Of a stretch of DNA of 64,000 nucleotides, positions 379-48,842 are shown piece by piece. The notes under the pieces are model-generated. The model saw nothing but the letters and a program-made list of their open reading frames with translations, made no database searches and was not told the DNA's origin. Origin of the DNA: Thermoproteaceae archaeon (lineage in GTDB: Archaea > Thermoproteota > Thermoprotei > Thermoproteales > Thermoproteaceae); contig JAJHRB010000002.1 in the NCBI GenBank assembly GCA_020833025.1, positions 1 to 64,000 on the forward strand. The letters are read 5' to 3'. Position numbers and translations under genes: made by a program. How positions within the stretch are numbered: the first letter of the stretch is position 1; every line of letters begins with the position of its first letter.

Positions 379-401
379 GGCAGCGGCCGGGAGTAAACGG
401 C

Positions 402-493
402 CGCCCGGGCACGACCCGGCCATGGATGCGGGGCTCTGGAGCCGGCGGCGGGGAGACCCCGTGGCCCGGGTTCGAATCCCGGCCGGGCTACCA
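402..493 (+). tRNA. tRNA-Gln(CTG) 3' fragment (positions 22-76) with 37/38 intron 440-455 and a non-tRNA leader; probable split-tRNA half
   Basis: GGATG-CGGGG-CT-CTG-G, 16-nt BHB intron, A-CCCCG, T-arm CCGGGTTCGAATCCCGG, CCGGGCT-A-CCA; positions 8-15 read GCACGACC instead of a TAGTCTAG-like motif. Confidence 0.8.
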
Positions 494-7302: not shown

Positions 7303-7350
7303 GTCTGTGGCACCCGCTAGTGCTTTTTACGGAGCTCGACCACCAGGGTA

Positions 7351-8403
7351 TCACTCAAGTAACTTTATCATCTTACGCATCTTGAGGTACTGCGCGTAGT
7401 CTACATACACCTTATTGCGCAGCATGTGCTCGACCGCGGGCGCGGGCGCCCTCTGCCTTTCTGTTATCACGTCGGTGACCCTGAATACAAATGCATCAGA
7501 CCCGGCCCCGCTCCCGTAAGTGACGAGCAGTATTCTGTCGCCGGGCTTCGCCATCTCGAGCACCCTGGCAAACCCTATCAGCGCCGACGCGTTGTACGTA
7601 TTGCCTATGTGCGTGACCACAATGCCCGGCTTGACCCTGTCCATCGGTATTCCCAGTGCCGACGCAACGCGGAGCGGGAACCTGCCATTTGGCTGGTGGA
7701 ACACTGCATACGTGAAGTCTGCCGGCTTGTAGCCGTACTTGCTCACCAGCCCCCTCACGGCCTCGATTATGTGGCGGAAGTACGCCGGCTCGCCGGTAAA
7801 GCCCTCGCCGTGCATTGGATACGGCGACCCGTCTCTCCTCCAGAAGTCGGGCGTGTCCGACGCGTAGGCATACATCGCCTCTAGCTCGGCGGCGACGCCA
7901 TCCCTGCCGACCACCAGCGCGGCGCCGCCGCTGCTCGCGGAGTAGTCCAAGTGCTCCCCGGGCTCGCCCTGCGACGTGTCGACGCCGACGGCAATGCCGT
8001 ACTCCACGCGCCCGGCCTCGACGAGGCCGGCAATCGCGGCGAGGCCGTCGCCGCCGGCCTTGCAGGCAAACTCCATGTCCACCGCAAGGATGTCGTTCCT
8101 GAGGCCGAGCGCGTCAATGAGAATAGACGCTATTGGCTTGACGGCATAGGGCTTTGACTCCGTGCCGACGTAGACCGCGCCCACCCTCTCCCTGCTCACG
8201 CCGGCTCTCCTCAGCGCAATTCTGGCCGCCTCGACAGCTATTGTCACCGCGTCCTCGTCAAGCGCCTCCACGCTCTTCTCGTTTACCAAGTAGACGTCTG
8301 CAATTCTCTGGGGGTCGTCGCCCCACAGCCTGGCCACCTCCTCGGTCCTGATCCTGTACCTCGGTATGTAGACGCCCCAGCCCACAACGCCCACTCTCGT
8401 CAT
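7351..8403 (-). CDS. Hydroxymethylglutaryl-CoA synthase
   Basis: [28 protein letters not shown]. Confidence 0.95.
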
Positions 8404-18214: not shown

Positions 18215-18308
18215 GGGCCCGTAGCTCAGCCCGGACAGAGCGGCGGCCTCCTACGGCGACGCCGGGGAGAGCCGTAGGTCGTGGGTTCGAATCCCACCGG
18301 GCCCGCCA
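18215..18308 (+). tRNA. tRNA-Arg(CCT) with 37/38 intron (18254-18269)
   Basis: Full cloverleaf, A20, encoded CCA, TATA at 18184-18191. Confidence 0.95.
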
Positions 18309-21905: not shown

Positions 21906-22026
21906 TGGCGGGCCCGGTGGGATTTGAACCCACGACGTCCGCCCGCGTGGCGGCCTACGGCTCCGAAGGCTCGGCGGGCTCCCGCAGGAGTCCACCGCCG
22001 CTCCGACCGGGCTGAGCTACGGGCCC
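21906..22026 (-). tRNA. tRNA-Arg(TCG) with introns at 30/31 (21970-21994) and 45/46 (21937-21954)
   Basis: Removing both gives a cloverleaf; 30/31 BHB helix CGGC/GCCG is perfect; CCA encoded. Confidence 0.9.
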
Positions 22027-22091
22027 CGGCACTCCCTGCGGCGGCCTTATTAAACTTTCGCCAGCCGCCACGCTCTTAACCCGCCCGGGCA

Positions 22092-23432
22092 GTGCGCTTC
22101 GTGAGCCTCGCGGAGCTCAGGAGGCTGTTCGGCGACAGGCTTATAGAGGATCCCGTCATAGTCGCGCTCTACTCCCGCGACGCCTCTCTGGAACCGCGGC
22201 CGGCGGGGGCCATCGGCGTCGTGCTCCCCGAGAGCGAGGAGGAGGTGGTCGAGCTCGTGAGGTGGGCAGTCAGGAACAGGGCCCCGCTGTACCCTCAGGG
22301 CAGCGCCACGAGCCTCTCCGGCAGTGCCGCCGCGACGTCTCCGGGCGTTGTCGTGAGCTTCGAGAGGATGGCGAGGATGGAGCTGCGCCCCGAGGACGGG
22401 ATTGCAGTGGTCGAGCCGGGCGTCAGGCTGGAGGAGCTAAACGCCGAGCTTGCCCGCCACGGCCTCTTCTTTCCCGTGGACCCCGGCTCCGCCATGAGCG
22501 CCACGGTGGGCGGCCTCGTGGCAAGCGGCGGCGGCGGCATGTGCGGCGTGAGGTACGGGACTGTCAGGGACTGGGTGCTCGGGCTCAGGGTCGTCACGGG
22601 CCGCGGCGACGTGCTCAAGATCGGCTGCAGGACTCTCAAGTGCAGGAGCGGGTACGACCTGGTTAGGCTCTTCGTAGGCAGCGAGGGGACTCTCGGCCTC
22701 ATAACCGAGGCCGCGCTGAGGCTCGCGCCGCTGCCCGAGTCGGCAGCCGCCCTGCTAGTGTACTACGACGACGTTGAGGCCCTCGCCGGCGACGTGGCCC
22801 GCGTCAGGGCAGGCCGCGTCTGGCCTCTCTTCGCCGAGTACATGGATGCCGAGGCCTCGGCGCTGGTGGGGCTCGAGAGGAGGCACGCGCTCTTCATAGG
22901 CGTGGAGTCGCCCGCCGGGGCCGAGGGGGCAGCGCTGGAGAGGCTCGAGTCGCTGCTCAGGGGGGAGGTGGCACGGAGGGCCGCCGGCTGGGCCGCGGCG
23001 GCGGGGCTCCTCGAGCCTAGGAGGAGGCTATTCGCCGCGCAGGCGGCAAGGGCGCGGGAGGGAGGCGGGGTGCTGGTCGTTGAGGACGTGGCGGTCCCGC
23101 CGTCTAGGCTCGCCGAGGCGGTGAGGGTGCTGAGGGCGCTCGCCGAGAGGCACGGGCTGCCGCTAATTATCGGCGGCCACGTCGGCGAGGGGAACCTCCA
23201 CCCGGCCACGTGGTGCGGGGCTGACGGGGGGCAGAGGCTGCGGGAATTTCTGCGCGACGTGGCGGCGCTGGTGGCGGGTCTCGGCGGGACCGTCTCGGCG
23301 GAGCACGGCGTTGGGGCCCTCAAGAGGGAGCTAGTCGCGCTGGAGCTCGGCGAGAGGGCCCTCGCCTACATGAGAGAGCTGAAGCGCGTCTTCGACCCCC
23401 ACGGCATTCTTAACCCGGGCAAGGTAGTGTAG
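22092..23432 (+). CDS. FAD-linked oxidase, GlcD/D-lactate dehydrogenase family
   Basis: GSATSLSG, FPVDP, GSEGTLG, GHVGEGNLH, AEHGVG, LNPGK. Confidence 0.9.
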   Translation: MRFVSLAELRRLFGDRLIEDPVIVALYSRDASLEPRPAGAIGVVLPESEEEVVELVRWAVRNRAPLYPQGSATSLSGSAAATSPGVVVSFERMARMELRPEDGIAVVEPGVRLEELNAELARHGLFFPVDPGSAMSATVGGLVASGGGGMCGVRYGTVRDWVLGLRVVTGRGDVLKIGCRTLKCRSGYDLVRLFVGSEGTLGLITEAALRLAPLPESAAALLVYYDDVEALAGDVARVRAGRVWPLFAEYMDAEASALVGLERRHALFIGVESPAGAEGAALERLESLLRGEVARRAAGWAAAAGLLEPRRRLFAAQAARAREGGGVLVVEDVAVPPSRLAEAVRVLRALAERHGLPLIIGGHVGEGNLHPATWCGADGGQRLREFLRDVAALVAGLGGTVSAEHGVGALKRELVALELGERALAYMRELKRVFDPHGILNPGKVV

Positions 23433-23472
23433 CGGCTGAAGGCCCCGCCCCGAGGGGCAGGAGTGGTCGTCG

Positions 23473-23841
23473 TCAGTAGCGCCCCTCGAGGATCCTGCGC
23501 ACGAGGTGCGCGATGTGGGGGGCCTTCCTCTCCAGCAGCGCGAGAGCGTCGCGGAGGGACGCGCCCGGATCGCCCCCCAGCGCCCTGAATGTCAGGGCCA
23601 GCTCCTCAAACACGTCGGCAACTCTGATGCTGTTCATCCACTCGTCGGTGTTAAGCGCGACGTAGCGCCTCCTGCCGATTTTGAACGTCCTCACGACGCC
23701 ACCCCGCTCCAGCGTGAAGACATGCCACTGTACGGCGCCGTAAGACATGCCAGTGATCTTGGCAAGCCTGTACATCGGCACCGCGCCGAATTTCTTAAGC
23801 GCCTCAATTATTGCCTCCCTCGGGCTCCTGCGCTCGCTCAC
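23473..23841 (-). CDS. Winged-helix transcriptional regulator
   Basis: MYRLAKITGMSYGAVQWHVFTLE. Confidence 0.8.
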   Translation of the reverse strand: MSERRSPREAIIEALKKFGAVPMYRLAKITGMSYGAVQWHVFTLERGGVVRTFKIGRRRYVALNTDEWMNSIRVADVFEELALTFRALGGDPGASLRDALALLERKAPHIAHLVRRILEGRY

Positions 23842-23896
23842 GCTATGCACTTGTAGTGATATTTTTAACCTATACTTACTGTGCACACCAACCGGA

Positions 23897-23946
23897 ATGA
23901 TGAGGCCAGGCGCTGTCGAGCGGTGAGATGAGCTCGAGAGGGCTGA
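23897..23946 (+). ncRNA. C/D-box sRNA candidate
   Basis: ATGATGA ... CTGA over 50 nt, downstream of TTTTTAA; internal boxes degenerate. Confidence 0.55.
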
Positions 23947-23990
23947 GCCTCCGCGACGGAGAGTTTATCTAGAGCCGCGCGCTCCATACA

Positions 23991-24992
23991 GTGCAAGAGA
24001 TAGTCGAGGCGATAAGGCGCGGCATGACGCTGGTGTACGGGCCGCCGGGCTCGGGAAAGACCTCGCTGGCGATGACACTCGCCGACAGGGTGGCGAGCCG
24101 CGCGCTCTGGGTGTCAACAGTGGAGGGGCCGGAGCTGCTGAGGGAGGCCGCGAGAAGGCTGGCGGTGGACGCCGGGAAGTTCGACTTCTACGACTTCCCG
24201 CGCGCGTTCGGCAGGAGCATCATGCTGTTCGTCCTCGAGCGCGCGAGGGACTACGATGCCATTGTCGTGGACTCGGTCAGCGGCATTGCACCGCGGCGCG
24301 AGATCGGAACGCTGACACACTCGGTCCTCTACCAGCTGGCAAGGGAGAGGCCAGTGATTCTCGTCGCCGAGAGAGAGACGCCGAGAGTTGCCTACATTGC
24401 GGACAACGTGGTGCGGGTATGGTACAGAAGGACGAGCTTGGGGCACATCGTGAGGTTCGTGCAGCTCGAAAAGTCGCGGGTCCTGCCGCCGGGACCGCGG
24501 CGCGTATTCGAGATAGTCGAGGGCCGGGGAGTTATGTGCCTGGACGTCACAAGGACTGGAGGGCGTGCAGGGGTAATTTACGACAAGAGGCTGGGCGTGG
24601 AGGCCGCGCGCCGCGGCGTGATATGCGCGCTCTCTGAGAGCGCGAGAAGGCTCGCAGACTTCCTGGAAAAAATAAAGGATGGCGCGCTCTTCGTGCAAAT
24701 AGGGCCCTGGACAGTATTTCAAGGCCTTGACGTGAGCGAGAAGAGAGTTTACGTCATCAGGGCCTTTCACGACCTTTTCAGGCTGGCGGCCGAGTTGGAG
24801 TCAGGAGGGGCAAGGCCTCAGTACATCGTGGCGGGGGGTCTCGCGAACTTGAGAGCGGGGGAGCAAATGATATATCTTGCTGCGCTTTGCGCCTGCGCTG
24901 AATTTGCCGGTCACCTAGTCCTGGCGGATGTCTGCTCGGCTGACAGATCGAAAGAGCTTGCCTCGCTCTGCGGCGAGATTATTACCGTCTAG
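23991..24992 (+). CDS. RecA-superfamily (KaiC/RAD55-like) ATPase
   Basis: GPPGSGKT, IVVDS, LEKSR; degenerate second domain. Confidence 0.8.
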   Translation: MQEIVEAIRRGMTLVYGPPGSGKTSLAMTLADRVASRALWVSTVEGPELLREAARRLAVDAGKFDFYDFPRAFGRSIMLFVLERARDYDAIVVDSVSGIAPRREIGTLTHSVLYQLARERPVILVAERETPRVAYIADNVVRVWYRRTSLGHIVRFVQLEKSRVLPPGPRRVFEIVEGRGVMCLDVTRTGGRAGVIYDKRLGVEAARRGVICALSESARRLADFLEKIKDGALFVQIGPWTVFQGLDVSEKRVYVIRAFHDLFRLAAELESGGARPQYIVAGGLANLRAGEQMIYLAALCACAEFAGHLVLADVCSADRSKELASLCGEIITV

Positions 24993-25205
24993 GGCGCAGC
25001 CCCTCTAGGGGCCGCCCCAGTCTAGAGTATTGCGCGCACGACACCCGCGCTTGCTAACAGCAGCGCCCCCGCGAGCGCCAGAGGCGCCAGTACTGCTGCC
25101 ACGGCAGACCGCGCATACCTGACGGCAGCCCTCGCGACCTGGACCGTTCTTACAGCCATGCGGCGGGGCGGGACGCAGGGGAGTATCTACGGCCTCCTTA
25201 CAGCC

Positions 25206-25236
25206 GAAAGCCCCGCCCCTCAGGGCGGGGGGTCAG
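25206..25236 (+). mobile_element. Solo IS200/IS605-type end hairpin
   Basis: GAAAGCCCCGCCCCTCAGGGCGGGGGGTCAG; recurs three more times in the window. Confidence 0.6.
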
Positions 25237-25285
25237 AGCCCGCGTGCAGCGCCACGCTTTTTTTTACCCCCGCGCGACGCGCTCC

Positions 25286-26146
25286 GTGCCGGTGCCGATA
25301 TTTGACAACCACGCCCACGCCAACGAGCGAACGGGCCTCGGCGCCGCCGAGGTTGCCAGGAAGTTCAAGGCCGCCGGTGGCACCGGCATAGTGCTCGTCT
25401 CGCTGACCACGTGGTCGGTCGGCGGGAGGCCGGGAGACAGAGACTCCGTCGTGAGGCTGTACGAGCACACTGCAAGGGGTGCCGAGGCCGCAAGGGCTCA
25501 GGGACTCGCCGCCGGGGCCGTCATCGGCGTGCACCCGGCCGAGTGCGCGAGGCTCCTCGAGGCAGGCTGGGACGGGGGCGACGTCGAGGAGTTCATGCTG
25601 TGGGCGGTCGACCTGGCCGCGAGATACGTCGAGGAGGGGCGCGCCGTGGGCCTCGGGGAGTTCGGCAGGCCCCACTGGCCCGCGGGCCCCCGCGTCGTTG
25701 AGCTCTGCAACAGGGTGGCGCTCTACGCGCTCGAGAGGGCCAGAGACGTCGACGCCGCCGTTCACCTGCACCTGGAGAGGGGCGGGCGGGCGACTGTAGA
25801 CTCGGTAGCCGAGCTCGCCCGCAGGGCTGGCGTGAGGCCGGAGCGCGTCGTGATACACCACGCCGAGGGCGCCCTCGCGGGATACGCGCGGGAGAGGGGG
25901 CTCTCGCCGTCAGTGCCCGTGGGGCGCAGGGGAGAGCTCGACGCCGCGCTTAAGGCGGGGCCTGTGTTCGTCGTCGAGAGCGACTACCTCGACGACAGAT
26001 CGAGGCCAGGCGCCGTCATCCCCCCGTGGTCTCTCGCGGGCAAGCTCAAGCAGTACCTGGCGAGGGGCGCCATTACAGAGGACTACCTCCGCGAGATTTG
26101 CGCCGCCAACGTCAGGCGCATTTACGGCTGGCGCCTGCAGCTGTGA
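25286..26146 (+). CDS. TatD-related amidohydrolase
   Basis: DNHAH, GVHP, GEFGRPH, HLHLE, IHH, ESD. Confidence 0.85.
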   Translation: MPVPIFDNHAHANERTGLGAAEVARKFKAAGGTGIVLVSLTTWSVGGRPGDRDSVVRLYEHTARGAEAARAQGLAAGAVIGVHPAECARLLEAGWDGGDVEEFMLWAVDLAARYVEEGRAVGLGEFGRPHWPAGPRVVELCNRVALYALERARDVDAAVHLHLERGGRATVDSVAELARRAGVRPERVVIHHAEGALAGYARERGLSPSVPVGRRGELDAALKAGPVFVVESDYLDDRSRPGAVIPPWSLAGKLKQYLARGAITEDYLREICAANVRRIYGWRLQL

Positions 26147-26148
26147 GG

Positions 26149-27363
26149 CTACCTCCTCAGCGCGCCGAGAACCTTCTTTATCGCCGCAGCCGTGTCCACC
26201 GCGTCCTGCTCCGTCAAGTTCGGCGTGACGAGAAGCGACATAACCCTCTCGGCGGCCCACTCGGCGTTTGGCAGCGGCGCGTACTTAACCCTGCCGCGGT
26301 AGTGCGGGCACGACCACGGGCAGCCCCGCCCGTGCCCCTCCCTCCTCTGGAACAGCGGGGTCCTGTAGAGAGGCGCCGGGTAGGCCACGAAGGCATTGAG
26401 CACGCCCTCGGCCCTGACCGCCCTGACGACATAGTCTCTGGGCTTGCTGAGCCTCTCGACGAGCAAGAGGGCCTGGACGAGGTGCCACGCGTGCCTCATG
26501 TAGGGCCTGGGTCTCGGTATGAGCAGGAGGTCCCCCTCCAGCGGCGCGAGCTCGTCGAGGAGCGCCTTCACGTAAGCCTCCCTCCTCCTGAGGGCCTCGG
26601 GGAGCTGCCGGAGCTGGTAGTAGGCCAGCACTCCCTGCAGCTCCGTCATCCTGTAGTTGTAGCCGAGCAGCTCGTACCAGTACTTCTCCGTCTCGCCGTG
26701 AGACCTCAGCAGCCTTGCCCTCTCGGCATACGCCGTCACGTCGGTGGCCACCGCGCCTCCCTCGCCGGCGGCCACGTGCTTCGTTGCATAGAAGCTGAAG
26801 GCCGACACGTGGCCTATTGACCCGACCCTCCTGCCCCTGTACTCTGCCCCGAGGGCCTGCGCCGCGTCCTCCACTACCTTGACGCCGTGCCTCTCCGCGA
26901 TCTTCACGAGCTCGTCCATCTCGGCAGGCATGCCGGCGAGGTGCACGACGACAATAGCCCTCGTCCTCTCGGTTATTCTCTCCTCGACCGACGCCGGGTC
27001 GAGGTTCAGCGTTTCCTTGTCAATGTCGGCAAACACCGGCACGGCGTTTGCGTGGAGGGCTGCCGTCGCGCTGGAGGCAAACGTCAGCGGCGACGTCACG
27101 ACCTCGTCGCCGGGCCCCACGCCGATTGCCTTGAGCGCAATGTGCAGAGCCGCCGTGCCGCTGGACGTGGCAATTGCGTGCCTGACGCCGGCGTACCTGG
27201 CCAGCTCCTCCTCGAGCGCCCTGACCCACCTGCCGTGGTGCGCCGCCAGCGCGCCGGCTCTCAGCACCTCTGCAATGGCGCTGAGAACCTCGTCGCTGTA
27301 GACGTCGGGCCGTGGCACTATTGGCGTCTCCCTGACGGGCCTGCCCCCCTCTAGCGCCAGCAT
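26149..27363 (-). CDS. DegT/DnrJ/EryC1/StrS aminotransferase
   Basis: SSGTAALH, EDAAQ, SFYATK, GEGG, GYNYR. Confidence 0.93.
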   Translation of the reverse strand: MLALEGGRPVRETPIVPRPDVYSDEVLSAIAEVLRAGALAAHHGRWVRALEEELARYAGVRHAIATSSGTAALHIALKAIGVGPGDEVVTSPLTFASSATAALHANAVPVFADIDKETLNLDPASVEERITERTRAIVVVHLAGMPAEMDELVKIAERHGVKVVEDAAQALGAEYRGRRVGSIGHVSAFSFYATKHVAAGEGGAVATDVTAYAERARLLRSHGETEKYWYELLGYNYRMTELQGVLAYYQLRQLPEALRRREAYVKALLDELAPLEGDLLLIPRPRPYMRHAWHLVQALLLVERLSKPRDYVVRAVRAEGVLNAFVAYPAPLYRTPLFQRREGHGRGCPWSCPHYRGRVKYAPLPNAEWAAERVMSLLVTPNLTEQDAVDTAAAIKKVLGALRR

Positions 27364-27391
27364 AGAGGCGCGGGGCCGCCGCGGTTATAAG

Positions 27392-27871
27392 ATGCTCGCT
27401 GCAAAGGCCTTAAAGGGGAATTTCGCGCCGCGCGTGAGGTGGCTCTGCATCGCGTATGCCGCGTACTGGGCGTCAGTCGCGCTGACGGCAGCCCTCGCGC
27501 TCCTGGGGCACCCCATCGTGAGCCCGGACGCAGCTGCCGAGAGCGTTAGAAGGGCCGCCTCGATGCCCTACGAGCAGCGCCTCGCCGGCGCGCTTGCAGA
27601 CGCAATTCTGGTCTCTGCGGCCTCCTACCCAGCGCTGCTCTACCTCGCCGCGGTTTACGGGGCCTTCACGACCGCGCTCGCCGGCGCCTTCGGCGTGCTC
27701 CGCGCGCTGCTCTACGCCGCAGCCATTCAGGCCCTGCTGTTCGTGATGGCCCAGGTCTCTGCGTGGCACCCGCTCGTCCAGCACTTCACCAAGCGCGGCG
27801 CGATTAACTGGAGGAGGTACCTGGCGTGGGTGGCCGCGCTATTCTCGCTGGCTGGAATCCTCGTTATCTAG
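27392..27871 (+). CDS. Integral membrane protein
   Basis: Several hydrophobic segments. Confidence 0.7.
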   Translation: MLAAKALKGNFAPRVRWLCIAYAAYWASVALTAALALLGHPIVSPDAAAESVRRAASMPYEQRLAGALADAILVSAASYPALLYLAAVYGAFTTALAGAFGVLRALLYAAAIQALLFVMAQVSAWHPLVQHFTKRGAINWRRYLAWVAALFSLAGILVI

Positions 27872-27907
27872 CGCGGGCGCGGGTGCAGGGCGGTGCCGCC
27901 GTTCCCT

Positions 27908-28306
27908 CTATGCTGGCGCGTCGCCGCGCCTGGCCGCGGCGTATTGCTCGGCTATGTCGTAGCCGTACATCAGCCTGAAGAGCGTCCTGCCCTCCTCGGT
28001 CATCTGAGTCGGGTCCCACGGCCTGCTCAAGTCTATCACGACCTCGACCTCCTCCGCCTCGGGCACCGCCGACCTCAGCGCGCGCTCGACCTCCTCAACA
28101 ATAATGCCCGCCAGCGGGCACCCGAGCGCCGTGAGCGTCATGACGACTCTCAGCGCCTTGCCGTCGAGCACCACCTGCCTGACGAGGCCGAGGTCGTAAA
28201 TGTTAATCGGTATCTCGGGGTCGTAGATCCTCCTCAGCGCGTTAACCACCTCCCTCACCCGCTCCGGGGGCAAGTTTGTCTCGAACGCCGGCCTCTCCCC
28301 GCTCAC
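27908..28306 (-). CDS. DUF59 / SufT-like Fe-S assembly protein
   Basis: IYDPEIPINIYDLGLV, MTLTALGCP, PWDP. Confidence 0.9.
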   Translation of the reverse strand: MSGERPAFETNLPPERVREVVNALRRIYDPEIPINIYDLGLVRQVVLDGKALRVVMTLTALGCPLAGIIVEEVERALRSAVPEAEEVEVVIDLSRPWDPTQMTEEGRTLFRLMYGYDIAEQYAAARRGDAPA

Positions 28307-28387
28307 GCGTGCCTCGCGCCGCGCCCATAAAAAGCATACCGGCCTCGGGCCGGCGGCACGCGTATTAAGCCAGGCACGCGCAGGGGC

Positions 28388-28927
28388 GTGAGCGAGAGGC
28401 CGCTAAGACTGCTCCACCCCCGCCCGGTCGTCGTGATAGCAACCAAGTGCCCGGGCGGCCGCGTGAATCTCATGCCGGCCTCGTGGAACACGCCGGTCTC
28501 TGAGGAGCCGCCGACCGTCGCAGTGGCAATAGACAGGGAGAGCTACACCCACCAGTGCCTCCAGCACCACAAGCGCGCCACTATAAACATCCTGCCGGTC
28601 GAGGCCGTGGACCTGATATACCGCCTCGGCACTGTCAGCGGGCGCGATGTCGACAAGGTGTCGCGGTTCGGCGTTAGGCTGGAGCCCTCGCAGACTGTCG
28701 ACGTGCCGCGGATTTCCGGCGCGCTCGCGGCGTACGAGGTTGAGGTGTTCAGGGAGGTCGAGGTCGGCGAGGTCACGCTCTATGTATTCCGCGTGCTGTC
28801 GGCGTGGGTGGCGCCGGGAGTTGCAGACCAGTGGGGCTTCGACTTCAGGAAGGTCAGCGTGCCGCTCCACGGTGCCGGGCGCGCGTTTTACAGAGTCGAG
28901 CCGCGCCCGATCTTTGCCAAGAAGTAG
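28388..28927 (+). CDS. Flavin reductase family protein
   Basis: PRPVVVIAT, NLMPASW, SGRDVDK. Confidence 0.9.
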   Translation: MSERPLRLLHPRPVVVIATKCPGGRVNLMPASWNTPVSEEPPTVAVAIDRESYTHQCLQHHKRATINILPVEAVDLIYRLGTVSGRDVDKVSRFGVRLEPSQTVDVPRISGALAAYEVEVFREVEVGEVTLYVFRVLSAWVAPGVADQWGFDFRKVSVPLHGAGRAFYRVEPRPIFAKK

Positions 28928-28928
28928 C

Positions 28929-28993
28929 TGGAGGGGCCGGGGGTCCCGCGGGCGCGCTCCCCCGCCGCTCTATCCAGGCTGAGCTACGGGCCC
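28929..28993 (-). tRNA. tRNA-Arg-like 5' fragment (positions 1-30) plus 33-nt trailer ending CCA; probable split-tRNA half
   Basis: GGGCCCGTAGCTCAGCCTGGATAGAGCGGCGG then non-tRNA sequence; no anticodon or T-arm; TATA CTTAATAA at 29014-29021. Confidence 0.8.
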
Positions 28994-29083
28994 CGGGCAC
29001 GCGTGGGCGGGGCTTATTAAGCTTTGCCGCGCCTGCAGGCCCGCCGGCCTGAGCATTTTTTAGCTGCCGGCGCGTGGGGGTGC

Positions 29084-29707
29084 GTGGGCGCTGCCGAGCG
29101 CGTGCTGCGGGCGTTCAGAGAGGGGGGAGAGCTGTGGGGTGCTTACGTTGCGGCCAGAACGGCAATAGAGCTGGCCGTCAGGGCCGCGATCGAGAGGGGC
29201 ATTGCAAGACCCAGGAGATGCGCCGAGCTGCCCGGCGCGCTCGTCGAGGCGGGAATTCTCGAGACAGGCGAGGGGCTCGCGCTCGCAGAGATAATCCGCG
29301 CGTCTAAGCGCCTCCACAGGCTGGAGAGGCGCGAGATAGCCAGAATTGCAGAGGGCGCGATGAAGATCGTGGACAGGCTCGCCGCGGGGAGCCCGCCGCG
29401 CGCCGCGGCGCGCGTGGGCGAGGGCGTCGTTCACGCGCTGAGGGCGGCCGGCGTGAGGGCCGCATATTTGGTAGGCCCGAACGCTCTGGCCGTCAAGCTG
29501 GGCTCGCGCGGGCTTGAGGACGTTCTCAAGCTCGCCGCAGAGCTGTCCGCCGAGCTCGGAGTGCCGCCGGAGAGGCTACTCGTGCTCGACGCGGAGAGCC
29601 CGGGTAATCTCGAGAGAGTCGCGCTTTACGGCAGGCTGGTCTACGCGGAGGACCCGAGCGCCGAGGTGAGCTGGCTCGTTGACAGCTACATAGAGCTGTT
29701 CTGCTGA
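29084..29707 (+). CDS. HEPN-like plus minimal nucleotidyltransferase-like fusion (degenerate)
   Basis: N-half resembles DUF86/HepT (P...AELP..L...GIL); C-half resembles MNT (AAYLVG, LSAELGV, GRLVYAED). Confidence 0.5.
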   Translation: MGAAERVLRAFREGGELWGAYVAARTAIELAVRAAIERGIARPRRCAELPGALVEAGILETGEGLALAEIIRASKRLHRLERREIARIAEGAMKIVDRLAAGSPPRAAARVGEGVVHALRAAGVRAAYLVGPNALAVKLGSRGLEDVLKLAAELSAELGVPPERLLVLDAESPGNLERVALYGRLVYAEDPSAEVSWLVDSYIELFC

Positions 29708-44349: not shown

Positions 44350-44407
44350 GCGGGGGTGCCCGAGCCAGGTCAAAGGGGCGGGCGGGTGGTTAATGGGCGC
44401 CTCCCGC
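44350..44407 (+). tRNA. Split tRNA-Leu 5' half (positions 1-21, 44350-44373) with trailer
   Basis: GCGGGGGTGCCCGAGCCAGGTCAA then AGGGGCGGGCGGGTGGTTAATGGGCGC; no anticodon or T-arm follows. Confidence 0.9.
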
Positions 44408-48457: not shown

Positions 48458-48482
48458 CGTCACACTAGAAGAAAAACGCCCC

Positions 48483-48568
48483 AACCACCCGCCTGCCCGC
48501 CCAGAGGGGCAGGGTTTAGGTCCCTGTGGCGTAGGCCTGCGTGGGTTCAAATCCCACCCCCCGCACCA
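48483..48568 (+). tRNA. Split tRNA-Leu(TAG) 3' half (positions 22-76 from 48505) with leader
   Basis: AGGGG-CAGGG-TT-TAG-GT-CCCTG, long variable arm, T-arm, CCCCCGC-A-CCA; leader AACCACCCGCCTGCCC complements 44376-44391. Confidence 0.9.
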
Positions 48569-48691: not shown

Positions 48692-48842
48692 GCGGCGGTA
48701 GCTCAGCCTGGTTAGAGCACCCAGGGGCGCCGCCCCGTGTAGGAGTCTGGCCGCGGAGGCCGCGCGGCCGGGCGGTGCGGCTCATAACCGGGGGGACCCG
48801 GGTTCGGGGAGTGCCCGCCCAGAAATCCCGGCCGCCGCACCA
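48692..48842 (+). tRNA. tRNA with CAT anticodon (probably elongator Met), introns at 29/30 (48723-48742), 30/31 (48744-48779) and 56/57 (48806-48822)
   Basis: Each intron forms a BHB; mature stem CCCGG/CCGGG; lacks initiator features; Ile2 not excluded. Confidence 0.85.

Follow-up and report, generated by a model that had tools for sequence, protein, structure and literature searches.

Split tRNA genes are rare, having been described from Nanoarchaeum, Caldivirga and a few Desulfurococcales at no more than six per genome (PMC3218864, PMC4390854), six being the published per-genome maximum (PMC3218864). Five Pyrobaculum genomes contained zero trans-spliced tRNAs (Chan et al. 2011, PMC3218864), and a full-text search returned no newer literature on split tRNAs in Pyrobaculum. 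[quoted passage not shown] Both systems have two halves with promoters of their own and a 30/31 joint, a junctional bulge-helix-bulge (BHB) next to which trailer and leader pair perfectly over 13 nt, and orthologues that carry an intron at the same position (PMC3218864); in contrast to tRNA-Lys(CUU), the isoacceptor here is Arg(UCU) and the 3′ half contains an additional cis intron at 45/46. The split and tri-split tRNAs of Caldivirga maquilingensis offer a second comparison (Fujishima et al. 2009, summarized in PMC4390854): C. maquilingensis is likewise a free-living member of the order Thermoproteales, its split tRNAs have GC-rich leader/trailer helices and BHB junctions, and some of its 5′ pieces are common to several isoacceptors, whereas the split tRNAs given there are those for Gly, Glu and Ala. 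In genome G025, which we used for the C. maquilingensis comparison, Arg(TCT) is contiguous, and the examples named by Kanai 2015 (PMC4390854) include no split Arg tRNA, nor is one described by Chan et al. 2011 (PMC3218864).

Here we describe a tRNA fragment in a 64,000-nt stretch of archaeal DNA, which we call the window (contig C89). The metagenome-assembled genome (MAG) to which it belongs amounts to 1.56 Mb spread over 126 contigs (62.6% GC, 93.9% complete). A protein encoded next to the fragment has its closest homologues in Pyrobaculum records, including P. oguniense TE7 (CP003316.1), and the metagenome runs that contain this DNA come from hot springs and sediment.

A 5′ tRNA-Arg fragment with its own promoter

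All features of the fragment lie on the minus strand of the window. A TATA box, TTAATAA (29014–29020), preceded by a BRE-like aaagc, belongs to the RAAAGCTTAAWA-type motif also present at the Arg(TCG) gene, and other tRNA pieces in the genome have similar TATA motifs. The 20-nt spacer from the TATA box to G1 equals that at Arg(TCG), which starts at 22026. Exon 1 (28962–28993) reads GGGCCCG-TA-GCTC-AGCCTGGATA-GAGC-G-GCGG and provides positions 1–30 of tRNA-Arg(UCU), namely the acceptor 5′ strand, the D-arm with A20, G26 and G27–G30; it is 32 nt long because D-loop positions 17a and 20a are present. All 32 nt are the same as the start of the intact tRNA-Arg(TCT) in four genomes of the same genus (L065, L066, L067 and L070), which excludes chance and marks the fragment as a genuine tRNA piece. 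After G30 (28962) the sequence leaves the tRNA and continues as a GC-rich trailer, GGGAGCGCGCCCGCGGGACCCCCGGCCCCTCCAGC (28961 to approximately 28929), its far end overlapping the stop codon of a flavin-reductase gene in convergent orientation (28388–28927, plus strand). A sequence-only reading of the window had already recognized canonical tRNA positions 1–30 including A20, a TATA box at tRNA spacing, a departure at 30/31 (the site at which it also placed the cis intron of Arg(TCG), 21970–21994) and a GC-rich trailer, and our analysis bears it out on each point; the span that it gave, 28929–29021, encloses the feature, although its upper end is one base too far since the TATA box ends at 29020.

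The same reading had noted that no anticodon or T-arm follows the fragment. In agreement, neither ARAGORN nor Rfam, permissive E-values included, called a tRNA at this locus, no anticodon, T-arm or acceptor 3′ part was found downstream of G30, and CGGGCCC acceptor 3′ strands occur in the window only within the complete Arg(CCT) and Arg(TCG) genes. The locus is situated 29 kb into a 67-kb contig. A 5′ tRNA fragment with a promoter and no 3′ part in cis is thereby confirmed. Two cis arrangements were considered and set aside: a circularly permuted tRNA gene, given that there is no 3′ half near 28993 and that the partner resides on another contig, and cis-splicing to the 3′ part of Arg(TCG) 7 kb downstream, given that Arg(TCG) is complete and that genes on the opposite strand lie between.

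The fragment might also be an assembly artefact, a chimeric join within repeated tRNA sequence, as several tRNA genes contain the 32-nt exon, and three of four runs yield de Bruijn contigs that break at it. Against this stands a 4,864-nt contig from an independent study (run X3) that spans 28300–29700, with both flanks, at 99% identity, and a chimera would not give rise to complementarity between the trailer and a leader located on a different contig; we give this explanation practically no credence. Strain variants in other metagenomes affect the distal trailer at 28934, 28939 and 28943, and the variant in run X4, 28943 G>A, would lengthen the trans helix by a U:A pair, to 14 bp, provided that the leader is unchanged.

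The partner 3′ half and the trailer–leader junction

We searched the whole MAG for CGGGCCC 3′ strands preceded by a T-arm, and recovered one orphan with the anticodon TCT, on contig C13. This orphan has its own TATA box, TTAAATAA (C13:7277–7284), followed by a leader of approximately 24 nt, AATCCCGCGGGCGCGAGCCGCCGAG, with a predicted start near 7304, approximately 20 nt past the TATA box, and an end at GCCG-AG|C31. The exon extends from C31 at 7328 to the encoded CCA at 7389–7391, begins with CCTTCTAAGCCGT and includes CGGGCCCGCCA; in full it reads CCTTCTAAGCCGT AG [GCCGGGGCGCGGGCGGAC] GTC GTGGG TTCGAAT CCCAC CGGGCCC G CCA, the outer brackets enclosing an 18-nt intron at 45/46, where near-identical introns are found in many tRNAs of this genome. 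The sequence-only reading had placed the partner outside the window and predicted that its leader would be complementary to GGAGCGCGCCCGCGGGACC and then run GCCG-AG|C-CT-NNN; the C13 sequence, ...AATCCCGCGGGCGCGAGCCGCCGAG|CCTTCTAAGCCGT..., is of this form. Like the window fragment, the 3′ half goes unrecognized as tRNA by Rfam at permissive E-values. It is placed mid-contig, and because both loci are well inside their contigs, a single gene interrupted by a modest intron does not account for them.

On the opposite strand of C13, arranged back-to-back with the Arg(TCT) 3′ half, is the promoter-bearing 3′ half of a CAU tRNA, Ile2 or Met (7260–7125, minus strand; L002), with a T-loop intron and the acceptor CGGGCCC-A-CCA. 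It was rejected as a partner of the window fragment, as its positions 40–43 (CGGG) cannot pair with G27–G30 and its duplex with the trailer reaches −28.2 kcal/mol.

The trailer and the C13 leader are complementary. Trailer positions i6–i18, CGCGCCCGCGGGA (28956–28944), form 13 uninterrupted base pairs with TCCCGCGGGCGCG (C13:7305–7317), and beyond this helix follow a tandem A-G/G-A mismatch and the pairs GG (28960–28959):CC, so that the pairing segment of the trailer as a whole, GG-AG-CGCGCCCGCGGGA (28944–28960, minus strand), faces CC and TCCCGCGGGCGCG of the leader (C13:7305–7321); the distal trailer, CCCCCGGCCCCTCCA (28929–28943, minus strand), is unpaired in the model. In a manually drawn register, C25-G26-G27-C28 (28964–28967, minus strand) is the exon strand of a central 4-bp BHB helix and pairs with GCCG in the C13 leader. 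The register and the exon boundary of the orthologues together place a 3-nt bulge, G29-G30|G (28961–28963, minus strand), with the predicted 5′ cleavage site at 28962/28961; the second 3-nt bulge is A-G|C31, beyond which lies a weak outer helix h (G24:C32, A23:U33, G22-U34). The same register is found at the cis 30/31 introns in Arg(TCG) and Arg(GCG) of this genome and in Arg(TCT) of relatives. The hand-drawn hBHBh′ structure has −42.3 kcal/mol; the minimum-free-energy cofold has −50.4 kcal/mol and retains the 13-bp helix and GG:CC with the junction slipped, as it also is at the cis intron of Arg(GCG). A BHB at the Arg(UCU) junction is therefore compatible with, rather than predicted by, energy minimization.

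The cis 30/31 tRNA-Arg introns of this genome and its relatives resemble the split pair in their splice site and in a central helix CGGC:GCCG, and their 3′ end is GCCGAG|C in all but that of G007 (GCCGAA|C). The difference is that the two arms of a cis intron are linked by a hairpin loop in one transcript, whereas those of the split pair are encoded on two contigs behind two promoters.

The specificity of the pairing was assessed in two ways. In a duplex matrix of the trailers and leaders of the five pairs broken at 30/31 (Arg TCT, Trp, Lys TTT, Lys CTT and Asn), the diagonal was the best in all rows and columns, the Arg trailer forming a duplex of −45.8 kcal/mol with the Arg(TCT) leader and of −28.8 to −39.1 kcal/mol with the others. 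When all 3.1 million 17-mers of the genome were scanned for complementarity with a cut-off of at least 15/17, nine sites were obtained besides the trailer's own complement, and the C13 site was the only one to adjoin a tRNA 3′ half.

A copy of the trailer core, GGGAGCGCGCCCGCGGGA, matches at 18 of 18 nt on a 2.6-kb contig (C52:590–607, plus strand) with no tRNA beside it, and may represent a shared GC-rich palindromic or intron-derived motif. This copy lends some weight to an alternative in which the fragment is a small RNA acting by itself and never spliced, for instance as a regulatory or decoy transcript resembling a tRNA half; its own promoter and structured GC-rich tail would suit that role as well. 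This explanation leaves unaccounted for the orphan 3′ half with a complementary leader, the BHB register of the cis introns and the missing isoacceptor, and we consider it very unlikely.

The joined tRNA-Arg(UCU) and its proposed splicing

Exon 1 and the C13 exons together amount to 78 nt, which ARAGORN recognizes as a tRNA-Arg(tct) with a perfect cloverleaf, and the joined tRNA is identical at 74 of 76 positions to the intact Arg(UCU) of three Pyrobaculum genomes (G012, G005 and G002). The other four Arg isoacceptors are contiguous: Arg(CCG) at C46:10973, Arg(GCG) at C66:7856, Arg(CCT) at 18215–18308 of the window, and Arg(TCG) at 22026–21909 of the window (minus strand), with its cis 30/31 intron at 21970–21994. 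Arg(TCT) is represented by the two halves, and no other gene for it was found in the MAG assembly (93.9% complete). The sequence-only reading had proposed the 5′ half of a split tRNA-Arg for TCT, CCG or GCG, and had named intact genes for all Arg isoacceptors and the lack of a complementary 3′ half as what would speak against it; since CCG and GCG are contiguous, the proposal narrows to TCT, and the complementary 3′ half exists. AGA constitutes 17% of Arg codons, or 16 per 1,000 codons, in long open frames. Both of the enzymes that splicing would call for are encoded: EndA is represented by a PF01974 match of 100 bits (C61:40360–40611) and RtcB by a PF01139 match of 501 bits on C60. The RtcB open frame is 961 aa long (C60:4614–7331, plus strand; L092/L093), and its Pfam match is broken by approximately 455 aa between profile positions 55 and 46, possibly an intein.

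The fragment could instead be a dead relic of a rearrangement or of mobile-element integration, with a working Arg(UCU) gene in unassembled DNA, given that the MAG, in 126 contigs, is 93.9% complete and that an intact Arg(UCU) could lie in the missing approximately 6%. Archaeal integrative elements do leave partial tRNA copies, and two cases, both of Ser tRNAs, occur in this genome. These are exact duplicates of a 3′ part, for Ser(GCT) at C12:576 and 11396 (plus strand) and for Ser(CGA) at C17:10497 and 72 (minus strand); each duplicate is approximately 10.5 kb from the intact gene, on the same strand, with GCGCCGAA and an AT-rich flank before it, and they look like the att repeats of two related integrated elements. 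The Arg fragment differs from them: each Ser copy has AT-rich flanks and exactly repeats an intact gene close by, whereas the Arg fragment is an exact copy of no intact gene in the genome, the most similar one, Arg(GCG), deviating in both exon and trailer. Its promoter, moreover, is complete, and its dedicated partner possesses a matching leader and a separate promoter. No integrase or viral gene is present in 22026–29700, where the genes encode an FAD oxidase, an HTH protein, an AAA ATPase, TatD, a DegT aminotransferase, a flavin reductase and hypothetical proteins. Finally, the exon and the 13-bp helix are free of the differences listed for four metagenome strains, in which the flanks differ by up to approximately 4%. 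A relic is thus improbable, if less so than a stand-alone RNA.

We conclude that the element is very probably the 5′-half gene of a trans-spliced, or split, tRNA-Arg(UCU), a reading built on sequence comparison. We infer the following course of transcription, annealing, cleavage and ligation. The promoter at 29014–29020 would give rise to a short minus-strand RNA consisting of tRNA positions 1–30 and the GC-rich trailer, and the C13 gene to an RNA with a leader of approximately 24 nt, positions 31–76 with the encoded CCA, and the 18-nt 45/46 intron. Trailer and leader would anneal through the 13 bp, the tandem A-G/G-A mismatch and GG:CC, which would place C25–C28 on the GCCG of the leader and, with GG|G and AG|C left over as 3-nt bulges, form a bulge-helix-bulge. 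The crenarchaeal splicing endonuclease would then cut both bulges, RtcB would ligate G30 to C31, and the 45/46 intron would be excised by the same route.

Proposed origin of the split, and other fragmented tRNA genes

An Arg(TCT) gene with a cis 30/31 intron is present in five relatives, the 3′ end of the intron being CCGCCGAG|CC in G016, G021, G022 and G023 and CCGCCGAA|CC in G007. With this site occupied by a cis intron in several relatives, the split is probably of recent date. In the present genome, the cis 30/31 intron of Arg(GCG) is a 40-nt hairpin with arms that align to the trailer and leader of the split pair, and the changes between the two occur in concert: where the trailer has one more C, the leader has one more G opposite it, and a G:C pair is replaced by A:U. 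Parts of an ancestral neighbourhood can be followed on both sides. The window at 33.07–38.98 kb is collinear with DNA located 1.1 kb from Arg(TCT) in G016 and G007, and genes lying 0.8–3.5 kb beyond the C13 half, on its downstream side, have their counterparts downstream of Arg(TCT) in G005. When 40 relatives were searched with the 5′ half extended by its trailer, and with the 3′ half preceded by its leader, no orthologous split emerged, the matches being confined to tRNA exon parts. Likewise, 37 loci with orthologues of the adjacent flavin reductase had no tRNA 5′ part within 1.5 kb, which indicates that this adjacency is not ancestral. At the level of sequence and synteny, the data are consistent with an ancestral gene with a cis 30/31 intron that would have been broken in the intron hairpin loop by genome rearrangement. 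In a MAG from another Thermoproteales family (G039), the 5′ and 3′ parts of Arg(TCT) are approximately 170 nt apart (L090; G039:C2, 9750–10017, plus strand), with a TATA-like box between them and complementary flanks (CCGCGGGGA / TCCCCGCGG); this looks like either an independent split or a long intron at 30/31.

Arg(UCU) is one of at least 11 tRNAs of this genome with a 3′ piece that has its own promoter and no 5′ strand in cis (Arg UCU, Trp, Lys UUU, Asn, four Leu, two Gln and one CAU tRNA), and which are thus candidate split tRNAs, as against the published maximum of six per genome (PMC3218864). ARAGORN, when run with introns, produces spurious long-intron calls in this genome, and standard finders report only about 19 tRNAs above threshold in a 94%-complete genome, a figure that genes in pieces would account for. 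Besides Arg(UCU), four of the fragmented tRNAs are broken at 30/31. The halves of Trp(CCA) (C46:7391, minus strand, with C28:19259, minus strand) and of Asn(GTT) (C20:13302, minus strand, with C74:5842, plus strand) are on different contigs, those of Lys(TTT) (C81:627, plus strand, with C81:449, minus strand) are divergent and approximately 100 nt apart, and those of Lys(CTT) (C31:372..69, minus strand) are in tandem with an internal promoter. For each of these four trailers, the best-pairing leader is its own.

Additional promoter-bearing pieces were observed within the window. Two Leu 5′ pieces (44350–44379, plus strand, and 55050–55021, minus strand) share GCGGGGGTGCCCGAGCCAGGTCAAAGGGGC and continue into differing trailers, and two Leu 3′ pieces (approximately 48470–48568, plus strand, and approximately 53590–53495, minus strand) have the anticodons TAG and CAG and leaders (..AACCACCCGCC.. 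and ..CCACCACCCGCCC..) complementary to the Leu 5′ trailers. Further Leu 3′ pieces are found at C102:3231 (GAG, with a leader nearly that of CAG) and C34:22785 (CAA). By analogy with C. maquilingensis, the Leu 5′ pieces of this genome may be shared between isoacceptors. A Gln(CTG) 3′ piece broken in the D-loop lies at approximately 400–493 (plus strand) and has a sister, Gln(TTG), at C19:687 (minus strand), and a 5′ piece, GCGGCGGTAGCTCAGCCTGGTTAGAGCACCCAG, at 48692–48724 (plus strand) is followed by a GC-rich trailer. We think it likely, with less assurance than for the identity of the 5′ half itself, that this genome of a hot-spring archaeon of the Pyrobaculum lineage, with at least 11 candidate split tRNAs in a genus reported to lack them, holds the most fragmented tRNA gene set yet seen, and that Arg(UCU) was split recently at the hairpin loop of a 30/31 intron, each half staying near an ancestral flank.

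Split tRNAs are central to the debate that sets an origin of tRNAs from two halves against a later splitting, and the present locus would add a new isoacceptor, Arg(UCU), to those known to be split. The signs of a late origin are unusually clear in this case, comprising the cis intron of relatives, a paralogous intron that resembles trailer plus leader, and an ancestral neighbourhood that is partly kept. If this account is true, tRNA-Arg(UCU) would provide a natural snapshot of the ‘intron first, split later’ route.
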